Shown piece after piece: positions 1,583-17,272 of a DNA stretch of 64,000 bases; position 1 is the first letter of the stretch, and every line of letters starts with the position of its first letter. The position numbers and the translations under genes were made by a program. The notes below the pieces were generated by a model that did no database searches, had not been told where the DNA came from, and saw only the letters and a list, made by a program, of their open reading frames with translations. Origin of the DNA: Chthoniobacterales bacterium (GTDB lineage: Bacteria > Verrucomicrobiota > Verrucomicrobiia > Chthoniobacterales > JACTMZ01); NCBI GenBank assembly GCA_021463515.1, contig JAJTYZ010000114.1:263-64262 (forward strand). Direction: 5' to 3'.

Positions 1583-2253
1583 GACGTCCCTCCCTTCACC
1601 GGCGGAATCCAAAATGAAGACGTCGCACTCCGCGTATCCTTCGCGTGCTCGTAGAGCATTGTTAGCTCGATAAGCGCGGGGCGCAGCTGAGGATTTTCCC
1701 AGCGCTCCTCCCATTTCTTCGCCTTACCATCGAAAAAACGGACGCTGAGTTCTTGAAAATCTGCAACCAATTCAAGCCATGGAATATCAGCTGCCGCATT
1801 CAGCACACGCTTTGCAGCAAATTCATCTTGTGGGAAATTGGAGGCAGGTTCGAATCGTTTGAGACAAATTCTCCAACGCCCGTCGGATGTGTCTCGACGC
1901 AAGGAAAGCAGCACAATCATGTCCTCGGATTCCGGAGCGGAACGGCATGCAAGAAAGCCCGGAGCATTTCGAAGGAGAAAAAGAAATTCCGGCACCTCCC
2001 CTTTCGTCACCGGCACCGCAACAAGGCGCGTTCGCGAGGGAAGATTACGAAAATTGCTCCGCAAAATATCGGTAATATTCGTCACCTCATCTTCTCGACT
2101 TGCCCGCGTATCAATGAGCAACACCGTTTTTAACGAAGTCTGCACCACCATAAAAATTCCACTGACAAGGATGACCAACACCCCGAGAGCCACCATAACT
2201 TCGATAAGCGTCAGTCCGCTCTGCGTATGACAAGAATGATTACGGTGCCGCAT
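1579..2253 (-). CDS. gspJ: Type II secretion minor pseudopilin, GspJ-like
   Basis: N-terminus QSGLTLIEVMVALGVLVILVSG matches the prepilin cleavage/methylation motif (G-x-T-L-I-E). ATG at 2253. Position in the operon supports the call. Confidence 0.7.
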   Translation of the reverse strand: MRHRNHSCHTQSGLTLIEVMVALGVLVILVSGIFMVVQTSLKTVLLIDTRASREDEVTNITDILRSNFRNLPSRTRLVAVPVTKGEVPEFLFLLRNAPGFLACRSAPESEDMIVLLSLRRDTSDGRWRICLKRFEPASNFPQDEFAAKRVLNAAADIPWLELVADFQELSVRFFDGKAKKWEERWENPQLRPALIELTMLYEHAKDTRSATSSFWIPPVKGGTS

Positions 2254-2614
2254 AACTCCAAAGAGTTCCCATCACGCGATTGCTGTGCAGCGTGTCATGC
2301 GCTGTGACAGTAATTTTGAAAATTCCGGAAAGCACTTTTCCCTCCGAGAGACGTACTTCTTGAGGCCGAATATCGCGGTGATAACTCACGTGAAAAACAT
2401 CCGGTACAATTTCCTCCGAAGATTCCTGAGGAGGTTCGGCTAAAGCTTCATCGAGCAGACTTTGGAGATTGAGCCGCGTGTTGGTAAAGCGCTGTTGCTC
2501 GTAATCCGCATTAAGACCAGCATTCAACGATTTCACCATCCACACCACCGCCACCGAAAAAATCGAGAGAGCCAAGACAACTTCCAAAAGCATAAACGCG
2601 TGATTCGATTTCAT
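2240..2614 (-). CDS. gspI: Type II secretion minor pseudopilin, GspI-like
   Basis: Trimmed to MKSNHAFMLLEVVLALSIFSVAVVW (ATGA overlap with the upstream stop at 2611). Prepilin-type N-terminus, about 124 aa. Confidence 0.65.
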   Translation of the reverse strand: MKSNHAFMLLEVVLALSIFSVAVVWMVKSLNAGLNADYEQQRFTNTRLNLQSLLDEALAEPPQESSEEIVPDVFHVSYHRDIRPQEVRLSEGKVLSGIFKITVTAHDTLHSNRVMGTLWSYAAP

Positions 2615-3126
2615 CGGATGAAAAAGGTTTCTTCCTGATCCCATCCCGTCACCGCACTGTACTTTTGCGCGAAGTAGGAATCGTCCTTGCGAAACATCAC
2701 GCGAATCGGCTCACAAAGCCCCGTGGGAGGGAAATACCACCGATGATTTCGAGGGCGATTCCATACCTCGTTGGGCCATGTCGCTAATTCAAACGAGACA
2801 TCCTCGGACATTTGAAAATCGGAAAGAACGTCGTTTGCCTTTCCGACATTAATGCGTTCAAGGCGGAAACCTTGAGGCTGCAAAATAATTTGGTAAGGCT
2901 TCTGCTCCGCAAGGGCATTGCATCGGGCCGTGATGGCCATGGCCTCTAACTGCCGTACTGGTGCTTTAAGTTTTTCCGCCAGCAATAAACCGGAAACCTC
3001 TGGAACGGCGGCTGCAACCAACAACGTGACGATGGATAGCACAATGACGATTTCCAAAATCGTGAAGGCGAGCATTTGCCCTCGCGCCGCAAATTCGCCA
3101 AAACATTTACAATCCCTCGTTTTCAT
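2611..3126 (-). CDS. gspH: Type II secretion minor pseudopilin, GspH-like
   Basis: MLAFTILEIVIVLSIVTLLVAAAVP prepilin-type hydrophobic segment. Sits immediately after gspG. ATG at 3126. Confidence 0.65.
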   Translation of the reverse strand: MKTRDCKCFGEFAARGQMLAFTILEIVIVLSIVTLLVAAAVPEVSGLLLAEKLKAPVRQLEAMAITARCNALAEQKPYQIILQPQGFRLERINVGKANDVLSDFQMSEDVSFELATWPNEVWNRPRNHRWYFPPTGLCEPIRVMFRKDDSYFAQKYSAVTGWDQEETFFIR

Positions 3127-3132
3127 CCCACA

Positions 3133-3558
3133 CTACCAATTGCCGATATTCTTATCGTCCGTCGTCTGATTCGGCCCCAGCGACCAAAGGTCAAAACTCT
3201 CGGGATTATGCTTTCCTGGGCGGAGGTATTGATACTCACCGCCCCAAGGGTCGAGCAGGGCCTCCGCTTTCAACAACTTGGACCAATTACGAGGTTTTGG
3301 AGGCACTGTGGGAGGATCCACTAAAGCTTTAAGACCTTGTGCTGTCGTGGGAAAATTCAGATTTTGCATCTGGTAAACCTTCAATTGCGTCGAAAGGTTT
3401 TCGATATCGCTGCGCACTCGCGTGCTTTTAGCGACTTCCAGATTTCCCACGAGGTAGTAAATGCCGGCGGACATCAAAACGACGATAATCGAGAGCACGA
3501 GCATGATTTCGACGAGCGTGTACGCCGCCGCCTTATGGAGTTGAGATGATTTTTTCAT
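3133..3558 (-). CDS. gspG: Type II secretion major pseudopilin GspG
   Basis: AAYTLVEIMLVLSIIVVLMSAG... followed by LLDPWGGEYQYLRPG...FDLWSLGPN, which is typical of GspG. 141 aa. Confidence 0.85.
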   Translation of the reverse strand: MKKSSQLHKAAAYTLVEIMLVLSIIVVLMSAGIYYLVGNLEVAKSTRVRSDIENLSTQLKVYQMQNLNFPTTAQGLKALVDPPTVPPKPRNWSKLLKAEALLDPWGGEYQYLRPGKHNPESFDLWSLGPNQTTDDKNIGNW

Positions 3559-3583
3559 GGTATGTATGGATTCAATAAAAGCG

Positions 3584-4834
3584 TCATTTCCCGCGAAGCC
3601 CTGAGACCGCTTGAAAAATTCCGCCCATCATGCAGTAGGCAACGACACCCACAACGCCGGCCATAACGACAATCACCGCAGGCTGAATCATGCTCGTGAG
3701 TGCTCCAATCGCAGCATTGAGTTCTTTGTCGTAACGTGCGCCCGTCTTTTCTAAGGCCTGGGGCAAATTGCCGGTTTGTTCCCCTACCACAATCATGTCT
3801 ATAAAAACCGAAGGGAACGATTTCGTTCGAGCCATCGCACGAGAAAGGGAAGCACCCTCACCGACATCGTTAGTCACGCGACTAATAAGGCCTCGCAAAA
3901 AAACATTCGGCGTCGCGGCATTGGTGAGTTTAAGAGCACCATAAAGGGCAATCCCATTGGACGTGAGTGTGGCGAGGGTTTGAGCAAATTGTGCCAGAAA
4001 TTTTGCACGGAAAATCGGCCCCACGAGCGGAACACGGAGCTGCACGCGATCCCACCAGACCCGTCCAGATTCGGTATTAAGCAACGCTCGAAATGCAAAG
4101 GCGAGTCCGACAATCACCAAGACAATCAGCCACCAATAAGTGCCCAAAAACTTACTCGCCGCAAGAAGCACCGCAGTTGCTAAGGGCATTTTATTTCCCG
4201 AAGTTCCAAGAAGCGTTCCAAGTTGTGGGACGAGATAGCTGACAAATAAAATGATCAACAGGAGGCCGGCAAATCCGATAAATGCGGGATAGACAAGGGC
4301 ACCCACCACTTTGCTTTTGAGGTCGGCAATGAGCTTTTGATAAGCCAGTGTCCGCTGAAGAATTGCATGAAGTGCCCCACCTTGTTCCCCTGCAGCCACA
4401 AGATTGCAGAACAACTCTCCGAAGCTTGCGGAAGCCTTACGTAGAGCCGTGGAAAAATTAACACCTTCCCGAACTTCACGGCGAAGATAGGCGGAGACAT
4501 CTTTAAGAGCCGAACCTTCTTGTCGGTTCTCCATAATCCGCAAGGCCTGTTCCAGTTGTAATCCCGCCTCGAGGAGATCGCTCAGTTCTTCGGTGAAAAA
4601 CATCACCTGCTTGGCACTTAGCCGGTAACCACCTTGAGGAAGTGAGGAATGCTGGAGGTTATCCGTGGACTGATTTTGCGCGTCGTGACGCGCTTGATCA
4701 CGAAGTTTAAGCCAGAGAGGCTGAAGTTGCTCCCGACTGAGTTTATCGCAAGCCTCCGACCGAGAGCGCGCTTCAATTTCTCCTCGCATACGATGCCCCC
4801 CGCGTTGAATGGCTTCGTAGGTATAAGCTGCCAT
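3584..4834 (-). CDS. gspF: Type II secretion inner-membrane platform protein GspF
   Basis: Trimmed to MAAYTYEAIQRGG (its ATG overlaps the gspE stop by 1 nt, TAATG at 4832..4836). Duplicated GspF/PilC-type domains with three TM segments. Confidence 0.85.
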   Translation of the reverse strand: MAAYTYEAIQRGGHRMRGEIEARSRSEACDKLSREQLQPLWLKLRDQARHDAQNQSTDNLQHSSLPQGGYRLSAKQVMFFTEELSDLLEAGLQLEQALRIMENRQEGSALKDVSAYLRREVREGVNFSTALRKASASFGELFCNLVAAGEQGGALHAILQRTLAYQKLIADLKSKVVGALVYPAFIGFAGLLLIILFVSYLVPQLGTLLGTSGNKMPLATAVLLAASKFLGTYWWLIVLVIVGLAFAFRALLNTESGRVWWDRVQLRVPLVGPIFRAKFLAQFAQTLATLTSNGIALYGALKLTNAATPNVFLRGLISRVTNDVGEGASLSRAMARTKSFPSVFIDMIVVGEQTGNLPQALEKTGARYDKELNAAIGALTSMIQPAVIVVMAGVVGVVAYCMMGGIFQAVSGLRGK

Positions 4835-6558
4835 TAGTGTCCGCCCTCCTCTGCGGTAACACGGAGAATTTCCTCCACCGTAGTGACGCCTTCCAGCACC
4901 CGATCCCATCCATTATCACGCAGAACTTGCATTCCTTCTTCGATGGCGACTGCCAACAAATCGGACTGCGAACTCCTCTTCGCAATCAACTCCTGCAGAC
5001 GCGGCGTAATCATGCAAATTTCAAAAATGGCGGCACGTCCCTGATAGCCCGTTTGACGGCAAGCATCGCAGCCCACAGCACGATAAATCACTCGATAGGG
5101 AGGCAAATGAAATCCCCGACGTTCAAGGTCCGCTACGGGATAATTCACTTCCATTTTACATTCTTCGCAGAGGCGTCGGACGAGTCGTTGTGCGATAAAC
5201 GCACGCACAGCCGTGGAAACCAAGAAAGGTTCAATGCCCATATCCACAAGGCGTGTGATGCCGCCAATCGCATCGTTTGTATGCAATGTGCTAAAAACGA
5301 GGTGTCCGGTAAGAGCGGCGCGAATGGCAATTTCACCCGTCTCTAAGTCGCGCATTTCGCCGATCATGACCACATTCGGATCCCCGCGCAAAATGGCCCG
5401 AAGACCACGTGCAAATGTAAGGTCAATCTCCGGGCGAACGGCAATTTGCAAAACTCCCGGAAGCTTATTTTCCACGGGGTCTTCAATGGTAACAATCCGT
5501 CGCGATTCCTTATTGAGTACCGTAAGAAACGTGTAAAGCGATGTAGACTTTCCGCTCCCTGTGGGTCCCGTGATGAGGACAATTCCATTGGGCATCGCCA
5601 ATAATTTATCCACGCGCTCGCGATTTTTTCCATCAATCCCCAGCCGTTCAAAAGTGAACTTTTGCTGTCCCAATAAACGCAGACTTACACTTTCGCCGGT
5701 CACGGTGGGAATGGTGGCGACACGAACGTCAATAGATTGCCCTTCAAACTCGAGAGCAATACGCCCATCCTGCGGTAATCGCCGTTCGGCGATGTCGAGA
5801 TGTGACATAATTTTTACCCGCGCAACGACCGCATCTTGAAGTTTCGCAATCTGTGCAGGTACAGGCACATTGTGCAACATGCCGTCTACGCGGTAGCGAA
5901 TTCTTAAGTCCTCATGAACCGGCTCAATATGAATATCCGTGGCTCGTTCGAGAAGAGCTTCACGCATAATTTGATTCACAAATTTGACGACCGATGCTTC
6001 GGAATCATCCTGCTCATCGAGGGCTTGAACCTCATCTTTGAGGTGATCGAGAATTTCTTCATCTTCGCGCCCTTCCAACAACTCTTCAAAAGTATCTGCT
6101 CCGATACCATAGCCTCTACGCAGTGCCTGTTGAATATCGCGACGTGTGTGCATTGCCAACTCGATGGGCTGTTGAAGCGTTTGAGCGAGGCATTGCTTGG
6201 CTAACAAATCAAACGGATCAAACGTGAGAATTTGGAGGTTTTGATCGCGTTCGCCGACGACGAGTAATTGATGACGAAGGGCGAGGCGAAGCGGCAATCG
6301 TTTTTGCAATTCGCTACCGGCAAGCGTTGGTTGTGATGGCCACCACGGGAATTGGGTGGCTTTCGCCACCTGTTGAAGGAACGTCCGTTCCTCGACATCT
6401 TTTTTCTCCAAGAGAGCCTGGATGGGTGAGCGTTGTTGCGACAGGGCATTATCAACCAGAGCCGCGACGGTAGACTCACCGGCACCGGCAGAAAGGGCAG
6501 CTTCAATCAAAATGGCACGGAGTGAAAGCATGGCTGGCAATGCCAATTTGAGGGGCAT
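4834..6558 (-). CDS. gspE: Type II secretion ATPase GspE
   Basis: Walker A GPTGSGKST, Asp/His boxes (GEMRDLETGEIAIRAALTGHLVFSTLHTND) and the tetracysteine motif CEECK...CDACRQTGYQGR. ATG at 6558; a second in-frame ATG (M10) lies at 6531. Confidence 0.9.
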   Translation of the reverse strand: MPLKLALPAMLSLRAILIEAALSAGAGESTVAALVDNALSQQRSPIQALLEKKDVEERTFLQQVAKATQFPWWPSQPTLAGSELQKRLPLRLALRHQLLVVGERDQNLQILTFDPFDLLAKQCLAQTLQQPIELAMHTRRDIQQALRRGYGIGADTFEELLEGREDEEILDHLKDEVQALDEQDDSEASVVKFVNQIMREALLERATDIHIEPVHEDLRIRYRVDGMLHNVPVPAQIAKLQDAVVARVKIMSHLDIAERRLPQDGRIALEFEGQSIDVRVATIPTVTGESVSLRLLGQQKFTFERLGIDGKNRERVDKLLAMPNGIVLITGPTGSGKSTSLYTFLTVLNKESRRIVTIEDPVENKLPGVLQIAVRPEIDLTFARGLRAILRGDPNVVMIGEMRDLETGEIAIRAALTGHLVFSTLHTNDAIGGITRLVDMGIEPFLVSTAVRAFIAQRLVRRLCEECKMEVNYPVADLERRGFHLPPYRVIYRAVGCDACRQTGYQGRAAIFEICMITPRLQELIAKRSSQSDLLAVAIEEGMQVLRDNGWDRVLEGVTTVEEILRVTAEEGGH

Positions 6559-6587
6559 TCCCTTCCGCGCTCAAAGCTACCGGGATA

Positions 6588-6617
6588 AGCGGTAGCTATC
6601 TACGTGATGAGCGGTCA
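6588..6617 (+). promoter_or_regulatory. Direct-repeat box A (AGCGGTAG-N10-GATGAGCGGTCA); candidate LytTR-type operator upstream of gspE
   Basis: Reads AGCGGTAGCTATCTACGTGATGAGCGGTCA on the + strand. The AGCGG half-sites start at 6588 and 6610, a 22-bp period. It overlaps the response-regulator stop codon (6615..6617). It lies 30 nt from the gspE ATG at 6558 and 57 nt from the ATG at 6531. The proximal half-site is also the right arm of an 8-bp inverted repeat (6575..6582 / 6590..6597). Confidence 0.55.
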
Positions 6618-7301
6618 ACTAAGAGCTTGCTTAAGACTTGGCCAATAACGGCGACTCACAAGAAGTGCTTTCCCGTTACCTAAAATCACTTCGCGGCGGC
6701 TCTCGGAAATCGCTCGAATTTCACGAATGGCAGCCAAGCGAATAATGGTGCTACGATGAATTTGCATAAATTCACAAGGCATCACTTCGAGCCATTCCTT
6801 GAGGGGACGAAGCATGAGCGTCGAAGTTCCATCTCCCAAAACTAATCGCGTATAATTTCCCTCCGATTCGATGGAATCCAGCAATGTCCACTCCACACGA
6901 CGCACGGCACCTCCGAGAAGTAAAAGCAAAGTTTGAGGCGGAACGTGAGCGGCATCCCCGTGGATGCGAGCAAGTGTGTTCGCAAGTCGAGCGGGCTCTA
7001 CGGGCTTAAGGAGATAATCAAGTGCATTAACCTCAAAGGCCCGAATGGCGTATTGATCATACGCGGTGACAAACACAATGGGCGGGAGAGGTTGTGGGGC
7101 TTGGGCTAAAAAATCAAATCCGCTTTCTCCACGCAGTTGGACATCCAAAAAAATAATATCCGGCACGCAACGCTGACACAAACGAACGGCTTCCTTGATA
7201 TTCGAGGCAGCATCTATGGTTCGCACTTCGGGATGCACTGACAACAAATGCCGCATTTCTTGCCGAGCGAGAGATTCGTCATCAATGATCAAACAGCGCA
7301 T
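6615..7301 (-). CDS. LytTR-family response regulator (REC + LytTR DNA-binding domain)
   Basis: MRCLIIDDESLARQEM...DIIFLDVQLRGESGFDFL...VFVTAYDQYAIRAFEVNALDYLLKP gives a canonical receiver domain. The C-terminal part (EGNYTRLVL...MQIHRSTIIRLAAIREI) is LytTR-like. It overlaps the kinase gene by 13 nt. Confidence 0.85.
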   Translation of the reverse strand: MRCLIIDDESLARQEMRHLLSVHPEVRTIDAASNIKEAVRLCQRCVPDIIFLDVQLRGESGFDFLAQAPQPLPPIVFVTAYDQYAIRAFEVNALDYLLKPVEPARLANTLARIHGDAAHVPPQTLLLLLGGAVRRVEWTLLDSIESEGNYTRLVLGDGTSTLMLRPLKEWLEVMPCEFMQIHRSTIIRLAAIREIRAISESRREVILGNGKALLVSRRYWPSLKQALS

Positions 7302-8824
7302 GTTGAATCATTGTAGGGAATCTCAATGAGGGCGCGAACCCAGTTTTGATCGATCTGAAACTTCAATGAGGCCTCTTTCCCGTACATGAGTTGAAGGCGA
7401 TGGCGGATATTGTCCACTCCGAGATGCCGTCGAGAAGGATCTGGCGTACGCCAGATACCGGTATTTGCCACCTCGATTTTCAAATGCTGTTTTTCGACAC
7501 GAACATCAATGTGAAGGTTCATAATCCCGCTATGGACGGCAAGGCTGTGAGTTATGGCATTTTCTATTAAAGGTTGCAGAAGAAAAATCGGTATTCGTTG
7601 TTCCTCCAATCCTTCAGCCACAGCAATGACAACTTTCAAATCCTCGGGAAAACGCTGTTGCTCGATCGCCAAATACTGCCGAGCCAAAGTCATCTCTTCC
7701 CCCACCGTCGAAAAATTATCCGCAGGATCGGACAGAGTTGCCCGCATGTAGCCTGCGAGTTCCGTAACCATTTTACGCGAGGTCTCATTTGAAGCAGGCA
7801 AGGTCGCCCGCAAAGAATTGAGAGCGTTAAAAAGAAAATGCGGATTCATTTGATACCGCAGAGCGTCCAATCGAGCACGCTCTTCTTTCAACGAGATAGC
7901 AAGTGCCCGAGCCTTAGCGTGGACGAAATAGCGTTGTGCTAATTGGCGTTCCGCAACGAGTGCGGCGACGAGGAGCCCCGTTGCTGCTAACACCCAACAA
8001 AAGGCCTGGGTAAACCAAATCGCCGCTGGAACATGTTCGGGCACCATGCGTGACGCATAAAAAACAAGTGCTGCATAAACAGAGCCCATCACCGCGGCTC
8101 CCGCTGCAGCAGCACCCTGCGGACCCAACTTGACAGCGACGAGAATGAAAACCGGAAACACCAAAAATACGAAATTTTTCCCCTGGTCTAAAAAGGCAGC
8201 ACCACACGTTAAAAATGTCATGGTACTCACCCCTGCCACCCAAAGAAGCAACTCTCCATAGACATTGGAAAACACGGAAGGTCTCCGAAGTAGGAGCAGT
8301 AAAAGCGGCGAAAGCAAAATGAGTGCCGTCCCATTGGAAAAACTCCAATTCCAGATTGCCATACCGAACTGACTGAAATCCATTTTTCGCTCTACGAACA
8401 ACCAAAACGGAACAACGATTGTCCCCGGAATCGGTGCTATAAAAGATGCTGCCATCAGGGCCAGCACGGAACGCGTATGATCAAATCCACGAGCTACGCG
8501 ACCTAATTTGCGAACGATCAAGTAGCCGACTAACGCCTCCAAAACATTCCCGGTTGCTCCCACAAATGAAAACACAAGAGGCTCACCAAAGACTAAGGCC
8601 ACGATCGGAGCGGACACCCAAATCCACGGGAAAAAGCGCCAACCCAACCAGAGCAATCCCACAAGATTGATAGCGGAAGCTGGCCAAAAAATGTGCTGCG
8701 CCCAAGCAGGCAAACTATACGGCCATAATTGATCCCCAAACCAAAAGGTAAAACATACCGTCCCCGCAGAAATCAGTCCAAAGCCCAGCCCCTGCACCCA
8801 TGGATGTTTCCAAAAAGAAATCAC
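7289..8824 (-). CDS. Sensor histidine kinase, LytS/YehU-type (MASE1-like membrane domain + His_kinase + HATPase)
   Basis: About 300 aa of polytopic Trp-rich N-terminal membrane domain resembling MASE1. This is followed by LRYQMNPHFLFNALNSL (a hallmark of the PF06580-type H-box) and an ATPase region (LLQPLIENAITHS). The only available start is GTG at 8824. Confidence 0.8.
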   Translation of the reverse strand: MISFWKHPWVQGLGFGLISAGTVCFTFWFGDQLWPYSLPAWAQHIFWPASAINLVGLLWLGWRFFPWIWVSAPIVALVFGEPLVFSFVGATGNVLEALVGYLIVRKLGRVARGFDHTRSVLALMAASFIAPIPGTIVVPFWLFVERKMDFSQFGMAIWNWSFSNGTALILLSPLLLLLLRRPSVFSNVYGELLLWVAGVSTMTFLTCGAAFLDQGKNFVFLVFPVFILVAVKLGPQGAAAAGAAVMGSVYAALVFYASRMVPEHVPAAIWFTQAFCWVLAATGLLVAALVAERQLAQRYFVHAKARALAISLKEERARLDALRYQMNPHFLFNALNSLRATLPASNETSRKMVTELAGYMRATLSDPADNFSTVGEEMTLARQYLAIEQQRFPEDLKVVIAVAEGLEEQRIPIFLLQPLIENAITHSLAVHSGIMNLHIDVRVEKQHLKIEVANTGIWRTPDPSRRHLGVDNIRHRLQLMYGKEASLKFQIDQNWVRALIEIPYNDSTCAV

Positions 8825-8986
8825 GGCTCACTCTTTTGATCTCCTCCACAGCATGGCAAGTTATTTCCTACGCGAAGACGCATAAGAAATGGATGCCGCA
8901 TTTTCCGTTCGTCCAATTTTGCCATGCCGTTCATCCCTGCCTCCTCGGACGCTGCGATGCAACCTGAGAGTAAGTCCCATTTCTCT

Positions 8987-11900
8987 ATGAAAATGAGGCA
9001 TTCATTCTTGTCGTTTTTTGCAGTGTTAACCTTGACCGTTTGCCCGCAACTTTTCGCGGAAGCTTTTCATGTGGATCGTTGCGGGGTGTGGGATGCGCGT
9101 TTTCCGGGCCATCGAGAAGCAGAGGATTTTGCCATCATGCAATTTCCCATGGTGCTGAGCAGTCGGCCCGATATGCGGCGAGTGGATGTATTTTTCGAAT
9201 ATCGCGGAGATTTGCCCATGAAACAATCGCAGGACGGGAAGCCTCCAGCGACGGCATCGCTCAATGGCAAGCCCATCCACGTAGATCTGCGCTTTGGAAA
9301 TTCCGGGGCGACGCAATGGGTGAGAGCAAAGTTAAAGCTTCCGGACAAAGACATGAAATACGCGGAAAAAGGGGCACCCAATGATCTCCGAATCAGCCTC
9401 CATGCCTCGGATGGCACGTCCTTTGAAAAGCAGATCATCATCCCGGGGCTTACCCTTTCCTCGATGGATCAGCGTATCCTCGATGGCAAAGCCGCCGATA
9501 TTAATAGCTTCAACTACGCGATGGCGGTTAAAATTCCGCCTAACAAACTCGAATTTTCCAAGGGCATTCCGAAAATCGGTAAAGTTGGATTTGGCTTTCA
9601 ATTAAACGGCAAGTTGACTTTTTACCCGTTCACGAAGAAAAAAATTAATGACACGTATGGTGGCGTAAATCTCATAGCCGGCGAGAAAAAGTACGCCATT
9701 AAGGTCGGCAGCAAAAGCTCTGCCACATGGAGAAAAGGGGAATGGGATTACGACGAATGGAAAGCCTATATGGCGTTTTCACAAACGATTGAAATTTGGC
9801 AGCTCTCCTTTTTCGGGACATTGCCGCCGGAGACCAAAAAAGTCATTGAAGCGATTCCCTTTGCCGGGCCGGATATCCGCAAAGGATTAGAAGGTTTTAA
9901 GGCTTCGTTGGAAGCCGAGCCAACTCTCACAGGTGCTGCCAGCCTCGGGTTAAAGCCGGAAGATCCTTTTATTAAAAACTGGACGCTCAATGGAGAAATG
10001 GATGTTCGGCTTTCCCTTAATATGGCACTGGAAATTACGGCTTTGGGAAAATTCGGCGCAAGAGCACTTTTGGGCGGGAAAATTGACTTGGGCGTTCAGT
10101 CCCCCGCGACCCCGACTTTTTATACCTGCAAAGGTCAAATCTATGTCGGTGCCGACCTTTACTTTGCCTGCTTCGAATCCAATTTCCGCTATGCGCTGCT
10201 GGAATTTAACCTCAGTGCCGCCCCAAAAAATATCTTGCCGCCTATCAACACTTCGAAATCCAACGAACTCACGGCACCGCTTTTTCAGATTATGAAAATC
10301 CCCGAGGAAGATGAATTTTTTCCGCTTCAAGGTCTCTCACAAAACTCCGTAGAGCACGTGAAGCCATCGCAAGAAATCACCGCATTGGCGAATCACTTCC
10401 GTCAAATATCCGCCCCCGCAATGCCTCAGGCAATGACCTTGCAATTAGGAAATGACCCCCATGACATCCAAATTAAAAGCTCTGCCACATTACCCATTGT
10501 CAATCATCTCTCGCCACTGGCATGGCCAAGCATGGCTGCCTCGCAGGATGCACAACTCGTAATTTTCGGCGTGGACACCCGTGAGTCGAATGTGAAGCCC
10601 CGCAATCCCGTGCAATTCAGCAAACTCCTGTGGACACTCTGCGATGCCAATGGGAATTGGTCCGCGCCGCAACCGATGCCTGCCGGGAATGACGCTGCCC
10701 AAATGATGGCTTCTGCCGCCTACAACAATGCAGATTCCTTTCTTGCTGTGTGGCAACAAATGCGTGACCCAAATTTTCAGGGAGAGGACCCAGGAAGCTG
10801 GATGAACCAAAATGAAATCGTCGCTGCAAAATTTGATCTGAAGGAAAAAACATGGACGCTGCAACCCATTTCCAAGTCCACTGCAGGTACCGGCGATTAT
10901 TCTCCGCAGATCGCCATGGGCGCAACCATGCAGGGCAAAGCCGTTCCCGCCCTCGCTGTCTGGCTCCATGGAAAAATTCCGCCTATCAGCGCGTCAGGCG
11001 AAACTTCCACCGAGCCTGCAAACGTAACTTTCCATTGGTCCCGCTACCACAACAGCATTTGGAGCACGCCGGATTTCTCGACGACCGATGGAAATATGCA
11101 GGCTCTCAAAGCACCCAAGGGACTCCTGGCGTTTGATCTCGCCGCCACGGAGAATGCCAATATTTTGGGTGGCGTACTCGTCTATTCCTTCGTCGCAGCC
11201 GACGGCACGACGAAACTTGCCTGCCGTTATTTCTACGAACAACTTCCTCACGATTCTCAGCAACAGTCCCACCCGCCCATTTGGGGGCCCGAAGTCATCA
11301 TTGCCGATCAAGGAATCAATCTCGATCCGATTGTCGAAATGCGCCAAGTGAACAGCGGCTTTATCGTGTGGAATCAAAATGGCAATCTCGTGAGCACAGA
11401 ATTTCGTCTCAGCACAAGCACGTCGAAATTTGACAAGCTAACGGTGATTCGAAAGGCCCCAACCGGCAGTGAGTTTTACAACATTCATGCCATCCCATTT
11501 AAAGTCGGCGAATGGTCGGGTGGCAAACTTAAGGACCAAGCGATCGCGTGGAATGAACAGACGGATGATGGCCCGAGTATTGTGCTTACGGTTTATGATG
11601 CATACACCAGCACATGGAGTGAGCCCTTCTCCCTCACACCCGGAGATGCCTTGGAATCACTTTATGATCTTAAGAGCGATCGAAATGGCAACCTCATGCC
11701 GCTCTATGTTCATACCGACTTGAGCTATGAGAACGTAAAGACTCAGGATGAAAATGGGAATGCCGTACAAGTCGAGAGCGCACCGGTTCCGGAAGCCGAA
11801 AGCCTACGCATCGGAAAATTCCGCCCTTTGCGAGCTGTTGGTTTTGCATCCAATGGATTATCCACCACCTCGGAGGAGTTTATGGGAGGCACCAAGGTTA

Positions 11901-12517
11901 ACCTAACGGCTTCTGTCTCAAATTATGGCATTCTCGGGGTTAAGCCGCTGACGGTACGTTTTTATCAGGGCAATCCCAAAACCGGCGGAAATGAAATCGG
12001 CAAAAAGGACACTCAGGTTCTCCCGGGAGGTGCCACCGCACAAGTGACAATCGAATGGGATTTACCTGAGGATATTTGGGAAAAAGATAATGCGGCCACC
12101 GAAATTTATGCTGTGTTAGATACCAACCATCCCAGTGCCGCAACGAAGATTATCGGAGACACCGCCAGCCTTTATTTGGAAGGAATCCGTCTCGATGCCA
12201 GCGTCGAAGCAAAAACCCTTTTAGCCGATGGCTCCTTTAGCGTGGAAGTTGGCATCCAAAATTCCGGCTTCCCCAACACGGGTTCCTTTCCCGTGGTCAT
12301 TTATGATTACGCAGGCATTCACGAAATCACACGCGGAATGATGCCACGTGTCGATGCCGGAGGCTTTGAACAAGTCACTCTCGAAATGCCTGCCGGAAGT
12401 GCAGGAACAGCACCCGAAGGAAAAGATTTTTTGGTGAAAATAGACCCTGAAAACACTCTCAAACTTTCCGGTAATCCGAAATTGGAGAAAAAGCTCCATG
12501 TAAAATCTAAGCCATGA
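8987..12517 (+). CDS. Large secreted protein of unknown function (about 1176 aa) with two C-terminal CARDB-like Ig-fold modules
   Basis: Trimmed to MKMRHSFLSFFAVLTLTVCPQLFAEAF, a signal-peptide-like N-terminus. C-terminal segments (VNLTASVSNYGILGVKPLTVRFYQGNP...ATAQVTIEWDLP, about 11.88-12.13 kb; SVEVGIQNSGFPNTGSFPVVIYD...FEQVTLEMP, about 12.22-12.47 kb) resemble CARDB domains. The rest is unrecognised. Confidence 0.75.
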   Translation: MKMRHSFLSFFAVLTLTVCPQLFAEAFHVDRCGVWDARFPGHREAEDFAIMQFPMVLSSRPDMRRVDVFFEYRGDLPMKQSQDGKPPATASLNGKPIHVDLRFGNSGATQWVRAKLKLPDKDMKYAEKGAPNDLRISLHASDGTSFEKQIIIPGLTLSSMDQRILDGKAADINSFNYAMAVKIPPNKLEFSKGIPKIGKVGFGFQLNGKLTFYPFTKKKINDTYGGVNLIAGEKKYAIKVGSKSSATWRKGEWDYDEWKAYMAFSQTIEIWQLSFFGTLPPETKKVIEAIPFAGPDIRKGLEGFKASLEAEPTLTGAASLGLKPEDPFIKNWTLNGEMDVRLSLNMALEITALGKFGARALLGGKIDLGVQSPATPTFYTCKGQIYVGADLYFACFESNFRYALLEFNLSAAPKNILPPINTSKSNELTAPLFQIMKIPEEDEFFPLQGLSQNSVEHVKPSQEITALANHFRQISAPAMPQAMTLQLGNDPHDIQIKSSATLPIVNHLSPLAWPSMAASQDAQLVIFGVDTRESNVKPRNPVQFSKLLWTLCDANGNWSAPQPMPAGNDAAQMMASAAYNNADSFLAVWQQMRDPNFQGEDPGSWMNQNEIVAAKFDLKEKTWTLQPISKSTAGTGDYSPQIAMGATMQGKAVPALAVWLHGKIPPISASGETSTEPANVTFHWSRYHNSIWSTPDFSTTDGNMQALKAPKGLLAFDLAATENANILGGVLVYSFVAADGTTKLACRYFYEQLPHDSQQQSHPPIWGPEVIIADQGINLDPIVEMRQVNSGFIVWNQNGNLVSTEFRLSTSTSKFDKLTVIRKAPTGSEFYNIHAIPFKVGEWSGGKLKDQAIAWNEQTDDGPSIVLTVYDAYTSTWSEPFSLTPGDALESLYDLKSDRNGNLMPLYVHTDLSYENVKTQDENGNAVQVESAPVPEAESLRIGKFRPLRAVGFASNGLSTTSEEFMGGTKVNLTASVSNYGILGVKPLTVRFYQGNPKTGGNEIGKKDTQVLPGGATAQVTIEWDLPEDIWEKDNAATEIYAVLDTNHPSAATKIIGDTASLYLEGIRLDASVEAKTLLADGSFSVEVGIQNSGFPNTGSFPVVIYDYAGIHEITRGMMPRVDAGGFEQVTLEMPAGSAGTAPEGKDFLVKIDPENTLKLSGNPKLEKKLHVKSKP

Positions 12518-12656
12518 AGGTCTCCCCCTTCCGCATCAACGGATGGACTGAGACAATTGTGGAAAGAGCCATCTCCGCCTTCGGTTCCGGTTTGACCGTG
12601 TTTGTATTTCGATCGCAGGCGAACCGGAGCAACACGGTGATAGTGCTGCCTCTCCT

Positions 12657-12705
12657 AACCAAGACAATCTTGGTTGGCAGTAACCGCGCCCAATCGGGCG
12701 CGGTT
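12657..12705. terminator. Twin hairpins between convergent genes; candidate bidirectional terminator
   Basis: AACCAAGA-caa-TCTTGGTT (12657..12675) and AACCGCGCCC-aatc-GGGCGCGGTT (12682..12705). The second is a perfect 10-bp GC-rich stem. Neither has a strong T-tract. Confidence 0.45.
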
Positions 12706-12746
12706 GCCGGAAACATCCGCAACTTTTTACACCACGATATGTCGCG

Positions 12747-15704
12747 TTAGTTCTCTGCTGCGGAGAAGGTGAATTTGTAGGTATCCGCAGGAAGCGGGCC
12801 CGAGCCGTCGGCTTTCATCACTCGATCGGTATTGAGCAGGAGTCGTCCGACATCTTGCCGACCCAGCCGCCAAATACGCAGCTTATCGCCATTCTTAGCA
12901 ACAACGGGAATCGTGCGTCCGTCTTTTACCACAGCCGTGACCGGCGTCCCCAAGAATGTTCCCAGCGCATCGTCGCCTTGCACGCGGTAAAATACCTTGG
13001 CCAAATCCTTGCCCGTGTCCACATAGACCACAGGCAAATTACTCCAGCGGCCTACCGTGGGACTCGGGCTATAAGTCCCCGTACCCGTGACAGGCTTCGT
13101 GCCTGTTTCAAGGTCGTAGAGATCAAAGCCGTCCTTCGATACATTCTTGATGGTGAATTTGCCATTGGCTTCCTTCACGCCGATCACTTGATCAATCAGC
13201 ACCTTCTCATTCTCCGCGAGGTGATGCGGCGCATCAGTCGTCACGTGAATGGGGGTGCCACTTTTAACGAACTTAATGGCACTTGGCAGCGTGTCTGTTT
13301 CATCTCCAGAGAACTTCGCATCGGCTGTTACCGGCCCATAAGGTGCTTGGATGGCCCACACGTTTTTATTCACCAACCCTTTTTCTCCGGCAACGGTGAG
13401 AATCAGGTTGTTGGCCCCACCCGCCCCAATATCGGCGGTGTCATCATCTACGGAGAAGCCATAGCCCGAGAAACCAAGTTCCACATGAACAAACCAGACG
13501 AAAGGATCGAGGTTAAAGACATTGTACGTCTGACCTCCCGTGGGCTCGGCGGGATCGGGATACCAGTGCAAATGCTTGCCTTTTGCATCCACAACATCGG
13601 GATATTTGGTGAAGTCGCTCACCCCGCGTAAAACGGATTTGATGAGATCACGAATCATCGCAATGGCCATCTGACCATCCACCGAATCTTTGGCGGGTTG
13701 ATCAAATATGTAGCCCATATTAGCACCAATAATGTCCTGCATGAATTTGCACTGGCTGTCGTTGTTTTTGTGCCCAATCTGATTCATGGAAGCCATGATG
13801 AGATAAACCGCTTGCGAAAATTCGTAAGGACGACGCCACTCATCTTCCTTCGCAAAATTGAATTTGAGGAGCGGATATCCGGGCTGCCCTGCTTTGGGAG
13901 TCCAAATCAATGGATTGTAAGTCGGTGGCTCAATGGTAAACTTTTGATTCAGCGCAGGATTTCTTGCCACTTGACTTAGAACAGCAGATTTCTTATCGCT
14001 GGCGACTTGGAGAATGACTGCCGCCCCTTGATGTGGCCCCGTTTCTGTCATCGCATCATCCAATCCAGGCCCCTTCACCGCCATCCCTGGTACCAAGCCG
14101 GGTACGGGCTGAGTAAAAGAAATCGTCGCAGAACGAACTTCCATCGAACCTTGAACCGTAATGGGCGCCGTGGGCGCATTGGGATTTTTATCCTTCCAAT
14201 GATCCAAATAATACTGCGCCCATGAATACCAAAGTCGCAGCATCGTATCCGCCGCATAATCATTAACCGGACGCGTAAAAACATACGTCGTCATATCGCT
14301 TGTGTTGGCGAGCGGCTTGCTCAAGGTGACGGTGTAAGCTTTTGGATCCTTAGAAATCACGGTCGTACCCTCTTGGATGGGATTGGGCTTGGGTTTTTCG
14401 GGTGCCGGGTTGGCCGTGACAATCATGCCCGGCTGAATAAAATCCATCTTCGCTTTTCCTTCCTGAGGGTTGAGGCTCAATACTGCATTTCCTTTGGGGC
14501 TTGTTGTCGCCGAGTTGCCCAAAGCCAAAAATTTGGCACCCGTTCCTCCGCTAGAAAGCATGAACTTTACCGTCGTCCAATCCCCCGCTTTCTCATAACT
14601 CCCCGGCGTTGCCTTGAGCGGACTTTGAGCAAAGATATTGGCGCCGGATGGAATTTTTATGGGCTGCTTCGCATCCCCCGAAGGATTAGGGATATTGTAA
14701 AAAGGCCACCCTTTCCCTCCAAAATACTGTCCCAATAACTTGTTGGGTTTCGTTTTATCACCCTCCGCCGTAAACTCACGAATTTTAGCTTGGAGAGATT
14801 CAATGTTGCCAATGGAACCCGTCCAGCCATTGGGTTCAGGCTGCGAACCCGGCGTCCAACGTCCATTTTTATTGGGATCGGGCATCGCTCCAGAAATCGG
14901 CGGGAGCACCCAAGCATCCGTCACCTCCATCGCCAATGGGAGATAAAGATTGTCCACATTCGACACATCATAATTAATCAATGTCACCAACTCGGTATCC
15001 GGAATTTGATCCTTCGTCTTAAGTTTAACCATGTATTCATGATCGCGGATCGTCCACTCCGCGAGTTGGTCTTCGGAATCATCATTGGGTGCCTCCGCCA
15101 AAGTATCCGTCGCCCGATACCACATCACCACACCATCTTTGCTCTGCGCCGGCGCAATGGCGCGGATGGAAGCCGGACGATATCGCAACGGATTGGGATC
15201 GGTCGTCGTTAGGTACGTGCCATCGGTGCCAATACCAATGCGTGCGCCATTCCAAAATACCAAAGGCAATGACACCGTGATGCTTTGCCCCGCCTTCAAT
15301 CCGAAATAACAAGTGTCACCTTCCTTGTACCCAATATAGCCACGGTATTCCTTATCCGTGGGATCGTAGGGATCATAGAGCCCTTCGGTGGAACCTTCCG
15401 CTGTTGTTTTAGAATTCGGATTACGCATGATCGGATACACCGTCTTGTCGGAATTATTTACGATCGTCAGCGTCTTGTTGGGAATCGTATTCCCCTGCGG
15501 GTCCTTTCCGTAAGTAAGGACTTTTCCCGTTAATGTCCCCGGCCCCGGATTGGGATCCCAAGGCTGCGGCTTACTTGGATCCGTCACTCCCGTGGTGCCG
15601 GTAGGCATCGGGATTTTCTCCTCCGCTCTCGCAGGTGAAAAAAACAAGGACGTGCTGGCTGCAAGCACAGCACCCATGAGCAGGCGATGACGTTTTGCTT
15701 TCAT
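12747..15704 (-). CDS. Large secreted protein of unknown function (about 985 aa)
   Basis: The track ORF starts at TTG 15725. I trimmed it to the ATG at 15704, giving MKAKRHRLLMGAVLAASTSLFFSPARA|EE, a good signal peptide. Pro/Thr/Gly-rich beta-type sequence. A C-terminal stretch (IHVTTDAPHHLAENEKVLIDQVIGVKEANGKFTIKNVSKDGFDLYD) resembles small E1-FCCH-like beta-barrel modules seen in phage and surface proteins (low confidence). Confidence 0.75.
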   Translation of the reverse strand: MKAKRHRLLMGAVLAASTSLFFSPARAEEKIPMPTGTTGVTDPSKPQPWDPNPGPGTLTGKVLTYGKDPQGNTIPNKTLTIVNNSDKTVYPIMRNPNSKTTAEGSTEGLYDPYDPTDKEYRGYIGYKEGDTCYFGLKAGQSITVSLPLVFWNGARIGIGTDGTYLTTTDPNPLRYRPASIRAIAPAQSKDGVVMWYRATDTLAEAPNDDSEDQLAEWTIRDHEYMVKLKTKDQIPDTELVTLINYDVSNVDNLYLPLAMEVTDAWVLPPISGAMPDPNKNGRWTPGSQPEPNGWTGSIGNIESLQAKIREFTAEGDKTKPNKLLGQYFGGKGWPFYNIPNPSGDAKQPIKIPSGANIFAQSPLKATPGSYEKAGDWTTVKFMLSSGGTGAKFLALGNSATTSPKGNAVLSLNPQEGKAKMDFIQPGMIVTANPAPEKPKPNPIQEGTTVISKDPKAYTVTLSKPLANTSDMTTYVFTRPVNDYAADTMLRLWYSWAQYYLDHWKDKNPNAPTAPITVQGSMEVRSATISFTQPVPGLVPGMAVKGPGLDDAMTETGPHQGAAVILQVASDKKSAVLSQVARNPALNQKFTIEPPTYNPLIWTPKAGQPGYPLLKFNFAKEDEWRRPYEFSQAVYLIMASMNQIGHKNNDSQCKFMQDIIGANMGYIFDQPAKDSVDGQMAIAMIRDLIKSVLRGVSDFTKYPDVVDAKGKHLHWYPDPAEPTGGQTYNVFNLDPFVWFVHVELGFSGYGFSVDDDTADIGAGGANNLILTVAGEKGLVNKNVWAIQAPYGPVTADAKFSGDETDTLPSAIKFVKSGTPIHVTTDAPHHLAENEKVLIDQVIGVKEANGKFTIKNVSKDGFDLYDLETGTKPVTGTGTYSPSPTVGRWSNLPVVYVDTGKDLAKVFYRVQGDDALGTFLGTPVTAVVKDGRTIPVVAKNGDKLRIWRLGRQDVGRLLLNTDRVMKADGSGPLPADTYKFTFSAAEN

Positions 15705-15765
15705 AAATAATTTCGAGGCCGTCAAAATTCCACGGCTTTTCCAAAAGAAAAATCACTTCGTGATT

Positions 15766-15795
15766 AGCGGCAGTTAAGAGCGGGATGAGCGGTCA
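15766..15795 (+). promoter_or_regulatory. Direct-repeat box B (AGCGGCAG-N10-GATGAGCGGTCA); candidate LytTR-type operator
   Basis: Reads AGCGGCAGTTAAGAGCGGGATGAGCGGTCA. Half-sites at 15766 and 15788 (22-bp period). It lies 62 nt upstream of the ATG (15704) of the 985-aa secreted protein gene, in the same relative orientation as box A to gspE. It is 196 nt from the divergent regulator gene. Confidence 0.55.
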
Positions 15796-15990
15796 TCAGC
15801 ACCTCCCACCCAAAGAAAATCAGTGCTTGCGCTCCGAAGAAATCACTAAAAATGATCCGCAATTTCGCACGCATCTCACATCCGATCTCATCTCCTCCCC
15901 AAAATTGAATCGCATCGGCGCAGCCAAAGAAAACGAACCTTTCCTACCATCCATCCGCAATTTTCGACGCTTCGTCACATTTCCATTGAG

Positions 15991-16866
15991 GTGATGTTTT
16001 TCTTCGGAGACTTCAATGCGATCAGACATTTCATGCGTTTGAATCACCCAAGTTGTAAGCGTTATAGAAGGGAGTCCGCCGAAGGAAAAAAAGATCCGGT
16101 GTCCTCCTCCCCTTCCACGTCGCCCCAAAGCCAGCTTCCTTTCCGCGCTGTGTTGCTTGATGACAATCCAAATGATCGCGATCACGTGCGTGCCATGCTG
16201 CGACGCCATCCTTCGATCCAACTTGCCGGTGAAGCAACCACGTTGAAGCAGGCTCTCGAAATGATAAGTCAGAAACGAATTGATGTTATGTTCCTCGAGA
16301 GCGAAATCAAAGGACGCTTTATCCTCGAAGAATGCCCCCTGATTCCTGCTGCCGTGAAATTAATTTTCCTCACCAACCACCAAATGGCCGCCGTGCGTGC
16401 CTTTGAATTGGAAGCTCTGGACTTTCTTCTCAAACCCCTGTCGTCCTCTCGCCTCAACGAAACCATACGTCGCCTTCTTCGCATTGATTGGCAACGAACA
16501 TCAACGCCACCCCTTTTGAAAACGGACAACAACGCGTCGGCACTTATCCCCTTTGAACGCGGACGTCGCGGTGCCTCACTCAGCGAAATTTCCCTCATTC
16601 AAGCATTCGGCAATTACACTCGCGTCACCTTCGACAAAGGTAAAAGCGAAATCGTTTTGCGCTCACTTGCAAAATGGGAGCAGTTGTTGCCCATGCCTCC
16701 CTTTCTTCGCGTGCATCGCAATGCCGTCGTCCACACAAACAAGGTTCGTGCTCTCGATGACATCAATGGCTGCAGTGTTCTGCGCTTAGACAACAATGAG
16801 GAAACCATCCCCGTAAGTCGCCGCTGTTTGCCGGAAGTTCGCCAAGCTCTTTTTGCCCAGCACTAA
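15991..16866 (+). CDS. Atypical LytTR-family response regulator (phospho-acceptor Asp replaced by Glu)
   Basis: The receiver domain aligns with the neighbouring regulator: RAVLLDDNPNDR...RIDVMFLESEIKG (against DIIFLDVQLRG)...LIFLTNHQMAAVRAFELEALDFLLKP. The C-terminal part is LytTR-like (FGNYTRVTF...LRVHRNAVVHTNKV). The start is uncertain: GTG 15991, ATG 15994 or ATG 16033. Confidence 0.75.
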   Translation: MMFFFGDFNAIRHFMRLNHPSCKRYRRESAEGKKDPVSSSPSTSPQSQLPFRAVLLDDNPNDRDHVRAMLRRHPSIQLAGEATTLKQALEMISQKRIDVMFLESEIKGRFILEECPLIPAAVKLIFLTNHQMAAVRAFELEALDFLLKPLSSSRLNETIRRLLRIDWQRTSTPPLLKTDNNASALIPFERGRRGASLSEISLIQAFGNYTRVTFDKGKSEIVLRSLAKWEQLLPMPPFLRVHRNAVVHTNKVRALDDINGCSVLRLDNNEETIPVSRRCLPEVRQALFAQH

Positions 16867-16868
16867 TT

Positions 16869-16898
16869 TAACCGCTCATCCAATCTGCGACTACCGCT
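16869..16898 (-). promoter_or_regulatory. Direct-repeat box C (AGCGGTAG-N10-GATGAGCGGTTA, on the minus strand); candidate LytTR-type operator upstream of the NHLP precursor
   Basis: The minus strand reads AGCGGTAGTCGCAGATTGGATGAGCGGTTA. It starts 3 nt after the regulator stop (16866). The AGCGGTAG half lies proximal to, and 60 nt upstream of, the precursor ATG at 16958. Confidence 0.55.
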
Positions 16899-16957
16899 TG
16901 TCCCCTTTGCGTCGCCTTCCGCGTCGGAGGCTCTCATGCTCCCGTTGTGTCCGTGTC

Positions 16958-17272
16958 ATGAACACCCACAATCCGCCCAACTTTTCTGAAATGACGCGTC
17001 GAGAAATCGAAGATTATCTTATCGAATTAGCGATGGTGAATCCTCTGTTTCGCGAACAACTTCTTGCCGAACCCACACGCGTTCTACGTGATCTCGGCCT
17101 TCCCGTAGGCGACAATGTGCATATCTGCGTTCTCGAAGAAGAACCGCAGTCCTTTTACCTCGTGCTGCCACGTGTACTGGAAGACCGAGAAAACGCCCAA
17201 GACTCCTGCGCCTCTACGTATCCCGCGAACAACACCACCGATATGTTTCGCTTTTTTCATGGCTACGCATAA
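16958..17272 (+). CDS. NHLP (nitrile-hydratase leader peptide) family RiPP precursor, 104 aa
   Basis: MNTHNPPNFSEMTRREIEDYLIELAMVNPLFREQLLAEPTRVLRDLGLPVGDNVHICVLEEEPQSFYLVLPRV matches the NHLP leader pattern (xxLExxLIxxAxxxxxFRxxLLxxPxxxL...G..LP....V.V.EE....YLVLP). This is followed by a 31-aa tail, LEDRENAQDSCASTYPANNTTDMFRFFHGYA. The track ORF starts at TTG 16853, which would run through box C; I prefer ATG 16958, with ATG 16991 as an alternative. Confidence 0.75.
   Translation: MNTHNPPNFSEMTRREIEDYLIELAMVNPLFREQLLAEPTRVLRDLGLPVGDNVHICVLEEEPQSFYLVLPRVLEDRENAQDSCASTYPANNTTDMFRFFHGYA

Follow-up and report, generated by a model that had tools for sequence, protein, structure and literature searches.

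Paired direct repeats predicted to be LytTR operators ahead of secretion, exported-protein and peptide genes in a Chthoniobacterales bacterium

Binding sites of LytTR-family response regulators generally consist of repeats of 9-11 nt separated by spacers of 11-13 bp, with a bias towards positions 10 bp upstream of the -35 element (PMC4847170, PMC6193735). PlnC/PlnD and AgrA bind paired 9-bp direct repeats with 12-bp spacers, located directly upstream of -35 (PMC2714321, PMC4227749), and PlnC and PlnD, two paralogous regulators, bind the same repeats and the same promoters (PMC2714321). HdrRM and BrsRM, which belong to the LytTR Regulatory Systems, are phosphorylation-independent and autoactivate via direct repeats with 11-13 bp spacers, ~10 bp upstream of -35 (PMC6193735). 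For AlgR of Pseudomonas aeruginosa, the footprinted 9-bp sites include CCGTTCGTC, CCGTTCATC, CCGTTTGTC and CCGTTGGTC (PMC4064291, PMC4787818), and the yjiY site fragment of Escherichia coli BtsR contains ACCGCTTA and ACCACTCA 21 bp apart (PMC4847170). Here, we analyse 64,000 nt of DNA from a Chthoniobacterales bacterium (GenBank assembly GCA_021463515.1, contig JAJTYZ010000114.1, positions 263 to 64,262; hereafter, the window), an uncultured organism known from metagenomes alone. In the window, a tandem-repeat element that we call the box precedes a type II secretion operon, the genes for two large exported proteins (of 985 and 1197 aa) and the gene for an NHLP-type leader peptide, in the neighbourhood of two LytTR regulator genes, LytTR1 and LytTR2. 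We propose, with a probability of roughly 0.8, that a LytTR-family response regulator binds each box as a dimer, using it as an operator, and that it drives a regulon of secretion, exported-protein and peptide genes.

All four of the AlgR site strings occur as half-sites in the window or in orthologous boxes, and both half-sites of one of the boxes, box D (CCGTTCGTC and CCGTTCATC), are identical to footprinted AlgR sites; the half-sites ACCGCTTA and ACCGCTCA match the yjiY site fragment of BtsR (PMC4847170). Given AlgR- and BtsR-like half-sites in combination with LytTR spacing, the box looks as predicted for the dimeric binding of a LytTR regulator of the AlgR/BtsR type. Viewed as a predicted cis element, it is an unexceptional LytTR operator. 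Less usual are three features of its setting: the Glu that stands in for the phospho-acceptor Asp in the conserved regulator, the peptide orthologs with their Gly-Gly site and short conserved core beside C39-peptidase exporters, and a secretion system as the predicted output. AlgR resembles the present system in being a LytTR regulator with a PF06580-type kinase (AlgZ/FimS), and in controlling the minor-pilin operon of the type IV pilus, a machinery related to type II secretion. Nonetheless, AlgR sites are often single, far upstream or intragenic, and are not necessarily paired repeats (PMC4064291), whereas the boxes described here are strictly paired, 21-22 bp apart, and fixed beside a -35-like element, and the sensor's input domain is MASE1. 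For both regulators the top NCBIfam match is BtsR, at 158.7 and 91.2 bits, below the equivalog cut-off of 246, and BtsS/BtsR (YehU/YehT) shares with our locus a kinase of the LytS type; however, the sensor here has MASE1 in place of the 5TM-LytS/GAF input of BtsS, and BtsR controls a single pyruvate transporter gene rather than secretion genes or a peptide. Kraxenberger and co-workers reportedly gave the BtsR motif, in 2012, as ACC[G/A]CT[C/T]A with a 13-bp spacer.

The Gram-positive systems PlnABCD, ComCDE and BlpRH likewise have LytTR regulators that act on two 9-bp direct repeats, and they share with loci orthologous to ours a Gly-Gly leader peptide gene behind the box and a C39-peptidase ABC exporter nearby. 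They differ in that the kinase here is not of the AgrC/ComD type, the leader is an NHLP-type domain of ~85 aa rather than a short double-glycine leader, one of the regulators lacks the phospho-acceptor Asp, and the predicted output, in a diderm bacterium, is a type II secretion system. In HdrRM and BrsRM, the regulators have no receiver domain and a membrane inhibitor gene accompanies them; by contrast, LytTR2 keeps a receiver-like domain, with no inhibitor gene evident.

A full-text literature search returned no paper that connected NHLP to LytTR, or that dealt with LytTR and type II secretion in Verrucomicrobia. As far as we searched, the regulon around the box, conserved across soil Verrucomicrobia, with its Glu-substituted orphan regulator, Gly-Gly NHLP peptide, secretion system, two unnamed exported proteins and optional MASE1 kinase module, is undescribed. 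It would supply a regulatory code (motif, spacing rule and promoter distance) for a phylum with almost no known transcription factor sites. By linking the type II secretion system to two unnamed, abundant exported proteins, it would also give a first functional lead on these proteins, as candidate substrates or partners. Lastly, two regulator families that have the same half-site and apparently different spacers (12 vs 13 bp) would offer a system for studying how LytTR dimers read spacer length.

Paired boxes in the window

Read towards the adjacent gene, boxes A, B and C are 12-bp direct repeats with a 22-bp period. The core pattern of all four boxes is CCGYTNRTC-N13-CCGYTNRTC, a tandem of 9-bp half-sites, to which the window contains four perfect matches, A-D. 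All four are intergenic and each points at the gene next to it. They are listed here together with a probable weak fifth box:

Box A: 6584..6617, minus strand; TGACCGCTCATC-N10-CTACCGCTTATC with a 22-bp period, 52 nt upstream of the gspE start at 6531.
Box B: 15762..15795, minus strand; TGACCGCTCATC/CTGCCGCTAATC, 57 nt upstream of ATG 15704 of the 985-aa protein.
Box C: 16869..16902, plus strand; TAACCGCTCATC/CTACCGCTTGTC, 55 nt upstream of the NHLP ATG at 16958.
Box D: 8905..8935, plus strand; CCGTTCGTC-N13-CCGTTCATC, facing the 1197-aa gene, 51 nt upstream of ATG 8987.
Probable weak fifth box: 15947..15976, plus strand; CCATCCATC-N12-CGCTTCGTC with a 21-bp period, then 9 nt, then TTG.

The first three bases of box A are the TGA stop codon of the 228-aa LytTR1 gene, and a TTG at 6574-6572 lies exactly 10 nt past its proximal half-site. 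Box C begins just past the stop codon of the second LytTR gene, LytTR2. Box D, which has CCGTT instead of CCGCT, is located between a sensor kinase gene and the 1197-aa gene. The weak box at 15947-15976, upstream of LytTR2, carries four mismatches and is therefore not significant alone. In the same region, a 21-nt sequence, ATCCGCAATTT(T)CG.ACGC.TC, is duplicated at 15855-15875 and 15953-15973 (plus strand), 98 nt apart, such that its second copy overlaps the weak 21-bp box. A sixth candidate, at 51895-51924 (21-bp period, one mismatch), lies within an MFS transporter gene and was rejected as a chance match.

The initial annotation of this DNA had described three 30-bp boxes, at 6588-6617 (plus strand), 15766-15795 (plus strand) and 16869-16898 (minus strand). 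All three are real and their sequences had been quoted exactly. The 10-mer GATGAGCGGT has exactly three copies in the window, all inside boxes A-C, and the AGCGG cores are 22 bp apart as described, with AGCGG-N17-AGCGG occurring exactly three times. The distances of 57, 62 and 60 nt to the ATGs, measured from the 30-bp boxes, and the placement of the boxes relative to the LytTR stop codons also hold. Other details had to be revised: the number of invariant positions is 18 of 30, not 19; the boxes reach 4 bp further towards the gene (6584-6617, 15762-15795 and 16869-16902); and the count of three is too low, since the fourth perfect box, box D at 8905-8935, had been overlooked.

The paired pattern is far more frequent than expected by chance, with four occurrences observed against a mean of 0.002 and a maximum of one in 1000 dinucleotide-preserving shuffles of the window. 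Single half-sites are not enriched (13 observed; 8.9 ± 3.1 expected from the shuffles). Five half-sites are unpaired, four of them within long open reading frames (ORFs; 17933, 30767, 39678 and 51916) and one at an ORF boundary (54816). A repeat search recovered boxes A and B as a 37-nt pair, and boxes A and C as inverted pairs, with no flanking repeat. Within the window, then, the box is not a dispersed repeat: paired boxes are confined to intergenic DNA, their flanks share no similarity, and the number of single half-sites is what chance would give.

We also scanned a genome collection, which does not include the source genome, with ACCGCTCATC-N12-RCCGYTNRTC. The 85 loci found are scattered over unrelated taxa or lie in tandem arrays in Bacteroidaceae. 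These arrays, from Bacteroidaceae/Phocaeicola metagenome-assembled genomes of the gut (L043, L054, L101 and others; L numbers are our identifiers for loci), are long, with several sites per genome, and repeat CCGCTCATCCGCTCACC(T/G)CTCA-like units every 22 bp; they have no relation to the box. Matches in Solimonas, a gammaproteobacterial metagenome-assembled genome, Polyangiales and Holophagaceae (L049, L052, L026 and L053) resemble genuine paired LytTR boxes, for example ACCGCTCATC-N12-ACCGCTCGTC. Judging from such matches, a half-site of the CCGYTNRTC type may be widespread among diderm LytTR regulators.

Conservation of the box and its promoter geometry

Loci for comparison were gathered by protein identity or homology, and never by motif; orthologs were mapped with tblastn, and the loci were then scanned for the box. 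The related proteins are labelled Verrucomicrobia, Chthoniobacterales or Terrimicrobiaceae. A box lies between the LytTR2 stop codon and the NHLP start in all 11 loci that have both genes (the window, L014, L107, L109-L113, L116, L117 and L118), 49-55 nt ahead of the NHLP start in each; this count refers to the cis element only. A box is also found before gspE in four of five distinct genomes (the window, L011, L108/L115 and L114, but not L106), and before the 985-aa ortholog in every locus that has one (the window, L011, L106, L107, L108/L115 and L114). The 1197-aa protein has one other ortholog, in L114, with a box 50 nt ahead of its start. Hence, the box is kept in the orthologous promoters of relatives even though the regulators are only 45-75% identical, and it is the spacers that drift, while the half-sites hold. 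The box accompanies LytTR genes across >15 loci, and in nearly every locus a box begins no more than ~25 nt from a LytTR gene's stop codon.

The same picture emerged when the NHLP and gspE promoters were aligned freely with MAFFT, the invariant positions being the two half-sites, a downstream T..G and the start codon, with drift in spacers and flanks. In 25 of 25 aligned boxes there is a T exactly 10 nt past the box, mostly as part of a TTG or TGG that resembles a -35 element. This T was outside the search pattern, and the columns next to it are nearly without information. In many NHLP promoters, in some orthologs only, a TAnnnT follows 16-17 nt further on. Only two spacer lengths occur, 13 nt (25 boxes) and 12 nt (the class with a 21-bp period). 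Taken at face value, the geometry of the box is that of a putative activator site one turn upstream of a -35 element.

The suggestion in the initial annotation that LytTR proteins co-regulate these genes is favoured by all of the in silico tests, with a regulon larger than envisaged: it would also include the 1197-aa protein and probably the LytTR2 gene itself. In two of the comparison loci a box stands ahead of a class II lanthipeptide (LanM) cluster with five or six NHLP-type precursors (L014, 2133-2163; L016, 1893-1923). These clusters adjoin a kinase-LytTR1-LytTR2-NHLP module, and the position of the box before them implies that the regulon there includes true genes for ribosomally made, post-translationally modified peptides (RiPPs).

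Regulator assignment and rival explanations

The window encodes two candidate regulators and one sensor kinase:

LytTR1: 6615..7301, minus strand; 228 aa, with Pfam matches to Response_reg (1.3e-20) and LytTR (4.2e-16).
Sensor histidine kinase: 7289..8824, minus strand; 511 aa, with a MASE1 membrane domain and a LytS/AlgZ-type His_kinase domain (PF06580).
LytTR2: 16099..16866, plus strand; an orphan receiver-LytTR protein by Pfam, in an ORF open from 15991 with its likely start at GTG 16099.

The LytTR domains (PF04397) of the two regulators were found with E-values of 4e-16 and 1e-15. In alignments, the receiver of LytTR1 is canonical, with the phospho-acceptor Asp in an FLD motif. The LytTR1 gene is overlapped by the kinase gene, in the same orientation, and the kinase-LytTR1 pair recurs in L011, L014, L016, L018-L020, L118 and L119. 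LytTR2 is 28% identical to LytTR1. Its own family is tight (53-73% identity) and has Glu in the position of the phospho-acceptor Asp, 12 of the 15 members reading FLES instead of FLD and a further one FLET. Given this Glu, LytTR2 is probably independent of phosphorylation.

We propose that a bound dimer would recruit RNA polymerase to promoters that are otherwise weak. The window would hold four such units, namely the operon for type II secretion, the gene for the 985-aa protein, the gene for the 1197-aa protein and the NHLP peptide gene. Their leaders would be short, since the start codons lie 51-57 nt past the box. That a regulator binds, that it activates rather than represses, and which regulator it is, we infer.

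As for the binder, the assignment that we favour, at slightly below even odds, divides the sites by spacing: LytTR2 would occupy the 22-bp boxes, and the MASE1 kinase with LytTR1 would act through the weaker 21-bp box before LytTR2. Signals would thereby pass in a cascade from the kinase to LytTR1, from LytTR1 to the LytTR2 promoter with its 12-bp spacer, and from LytTR2 to the regulon boxes with their 13-bp spacers. Several patterns in the comparison loci are consistent with this division. All four boxes downstream of LytTR1 at loci without LytTR2 nearby, which stand ahead of autotransporter or other genes, have the 21-bp period (two in L018, and one each in L019 and L119). The promoters of LytTR2 itself bear weaker 21-bp boxes (L014, 10695-10724; L108, 9877-9906; L114, 9819-9848; L118; and the window, 15947-15976), and the promoters of the NHLP, gspE, 985-aa and 1197-aa genes have the 22-bp period in all loci. 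LytTR2 accompanies the regulon in every locus except L011, and four loci (L106, L107, L108 and L114) have LytTR2 and the regulon with no kinase-LytTR1 pair within 10 kb. The 21-bp boxes at 10712-10741 and 16473-16502 in L018, and at 10714-10743 in L019, precede genes for giant PATR-repeat autotransporters; proteins exported to the surface are thus an output that recurs in this regulator family.

Three observations weigh against our interpretation, the last two bearing on the division between the two regulators. A promoter consensus scan of the window revealed no good sigma-70 -10 element after boxes A-D. L011 has 22-bp boxes and LytTR1, with no LytTR2 on its 15-kb contig; a partial gene upstream was checked as a possible LytTR2 and is not LytTR2. 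Finally, LytTR1 and LytTR2 share the GNYTR, HR and SRR motifs of the DNA-binding domain, such that the two could have the same specificity. A strong alternative to the cascade, to which we give perhaps one chance in three, is that both regulators share the boxes, as PlnC and PlnD do their common repeats, or that LytTR1 binds them directly.

A related possibility is a classical two-component system, in which the MASE1 kinase phosphorylates LytTR1, phosphorylated LytTR1 activates all four boxes, and LytTR2 serves as a competitor or modulator. In its favour, box A starts at the stop codon of LytTR1, and L011 combines the kinase, LytTR1 and 22-bp boxes before both gspE and the 985-aa ortholog on a contig that lacks LytTR2. 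The DNA-binding motifs common to both regulators also speak for it, and PlnC/PlnD, acting on the same repeats, provide a precedent (PMC2714321). We nonetheless regard this scheme as less likely, since L106, L107, L108 and L114 carry the full set of 22-bp boxes with LytTR2 and without a kinase-LytTR1 pair within 10 kb, and LytTR1 loci without a nearby LytTR2 use the 21-bp period.

It is highly improbable that an unrelated factor, whether another transcription factor or an alternative sigma factor, reads the box and that the LytTR neighbours are coincidental. The poor match of the -10 regions to sigma-70 could be taken to point that way; however, the half-site is the same as in known LytTR sites, direct repeats spaced by about one helical turn are characteristic of LytTR regulators, and the box keeps company with LytTR genes in locus after locus. 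Judged by eye, the spacing also misfits the promoter elements of sigma-54 and extracytoplasmic function (ECF) sigma factors; a reading of the TGG after the NHLP boxes as part of a sigma-54 promoter was rejected, there being no GC element at the right spacing.

No more credible is an element that works at the RNA level, as part of a 5' leader or as a terminator or processing signal of the upstream LytTR gene. Boxes A and C do abut stop codons, but boxes B and D follow no gene, an Rfam search gave no match, and a conserved -35-like element lies downstream. Moreover, the repeats are direct rather than inverted, and hence form no hairpin. Chance similarity or the remnant of a mobile repeat, for which only the small number of copies in a single window speaks, can be dismissed given four boxes against 0.002 in shuffles, the lack of flanking similarity, and conservation in distant relatives with diverged spacers.

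Secretion genes, exported proteins and the NHLP peptide

The genes downstream of the boxes are as follows:

Type II secretion operon: 1..6531, minus strand; gspE (4834-6531), gspF (3584-4834), gspG (3133-3558), minor pseudopilins and gspK (704-1582).
985-aa exported protein: 12747..15704, minus strand; signal peptide MKAKRHRLLMGAVLAASTSLFFSPARA, followed by EE.
Exported protein of 1176 aa (1197 aa from the first ATG): 8987..12517, plus strand; signal peptide MKMRHSFLSFFAVLTLTVCPQLFA, followed by EA.
NHLP-type leader peptide gene: 16958..17272, plus strand; 104 aa, with the conserved C-terminal core ...DMFRFFHGYA.

The type II secretion operon runs past the edge of the window to the secretin, as seen on the identical contig L001, and Pfam matches on L001 and the window comprise T2SSE, T2SSF, T2SSG, N_methyl, T2SSK, T2SSM and Secretin. 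Comparison with orthologs fixes the start of gspE at 6531 (MLSLRAIL vs MPPLRDIL). Two further ATPases of the T2SSE family are encoded at 36884-37969 (minus strand, 361 aa) and 39260-41488 (plus strand, 742 aa); neither has a box close by, and both are probably parts of pilus-type systems.

The 985-aa protein has no Pfam or NCBIfam family match. Its own family is large, with >350 homolog clusters at 54-76% identity, all of them unnamed. An AlphaFold2 model of the protein has a mean predicted local distance difference test (pLDDT) score of 70.7; a Foldseek search against the PDB with it yielded only local matches of ~110 residues to the beta-barrel of E1 enzymes, which we consider uninformative. 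The protein had been annotated as a likely cargo of the secretion system. A signal peptide is indeed present, but the cargo role is a guess, there being no recognisable fold. Alternatively, the protein could be a lineage-specific part of the secretion apparatus, given a degree of conservation that would be unusual for a secreted substrate. Its gene often immediately precedes gspE on the same strand (L106, L108 and L114).

The 1197-aa protein has a weak CARDB match and no family assignment, and its ortholog in L114 is 33% identical. The first ATG of its ORF (8924) falls inside box D. The signal peptide starts with Met22, which makes ATG 8987 the probable real start.

The NHLP peptide scores 48.7 bits with TIGR03793 (NHLP leader), just under the cut-off of 50.9, and 24.9 with Pfam NHase_alpha, for which the cut-off is 27.2. 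Its leader is well conserved among orthologs. Seven of the eight full-length orthologs have a Gly-Gly site (ISGG, IAGG, VAGG or VSGG), followed by a core of 12-15 aa that usually ends in RFF[KR]GY[AST] or a close variant and has no obvious modification sites; TGSSNDMFRFFRGYA is an example of the L110 type. The Gly-Gly is missing from the window copy (...STYPANNTTDMFRFFHGYA) and from L111. In five loci (L106, L107, L110, L112 and L117), a C39-peptidase ABC exporter and a second ABC protein are encoded directly upstream of LytTR2. Neither a C39-peptidase exporter nor a LanM-type lanthipeptide synthetase is encoded within the 64-kb window. A radical-SAM/SPASM gene at 17291-18559 (minus strand), convergent with the NHLP gene, was considered as a peptide maturase and rejected, as its product is an anaerobic sulfatase maturase (TIGR03942, 515 bits; cut-off, 349). 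The term "modified peptide" in the initial annotation is thus unsupported.

Gram-positive pheromone and bacteriocin loci are laid out with a Gly-Gly peptide gene behind the regulator's own box and beside a C39 exporter. It is conceivable, if rather doubtful in our estimation, that the NHLP gene encodes a secreted signalling peptide and not an antibiotic, as part of a peptide quorum-sensing circuit of Com/Blp/Pln design in diderm Verrucomicrobia. In such a circuit, the C39 exporter would cut after Gly-Gly and release an unmodified peptide of 12-15 residues, ...FRFF(K/R)GY(A/S), which either the MASE1 kinase with LytTR1 or, directly, the Glu-substituted LytTR2 would sense. The regulator would then turn on the peptide's own gene, the type II secretion system and the two large exported proteins. 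If the peptide is indeed a signal, signalling by leader peptide, C39 exporter and LytTR regulator would extend beyond Firmicutes. Several features speak against a signalling role: the window combines a copy without Gly-Gly with the lack of an exporter; the kinase, with MASE1 and PF06580, is not of the AgrC/ComD (HPK10) type and is absent from many loci with LytTR2 and NHLP; and such strong conservation of the core would be unusual in a pheromone.

A strong GGAGG located between box C and the NHLP start (region 16926-16989, plus strand) stands 5 nt ahead of an out-of-frame ATG at 16936. This ATG opens a 17-codon ORF, MLPLCPCHEHPQSAQLF, which is found in the window copy only and may be due to chance.

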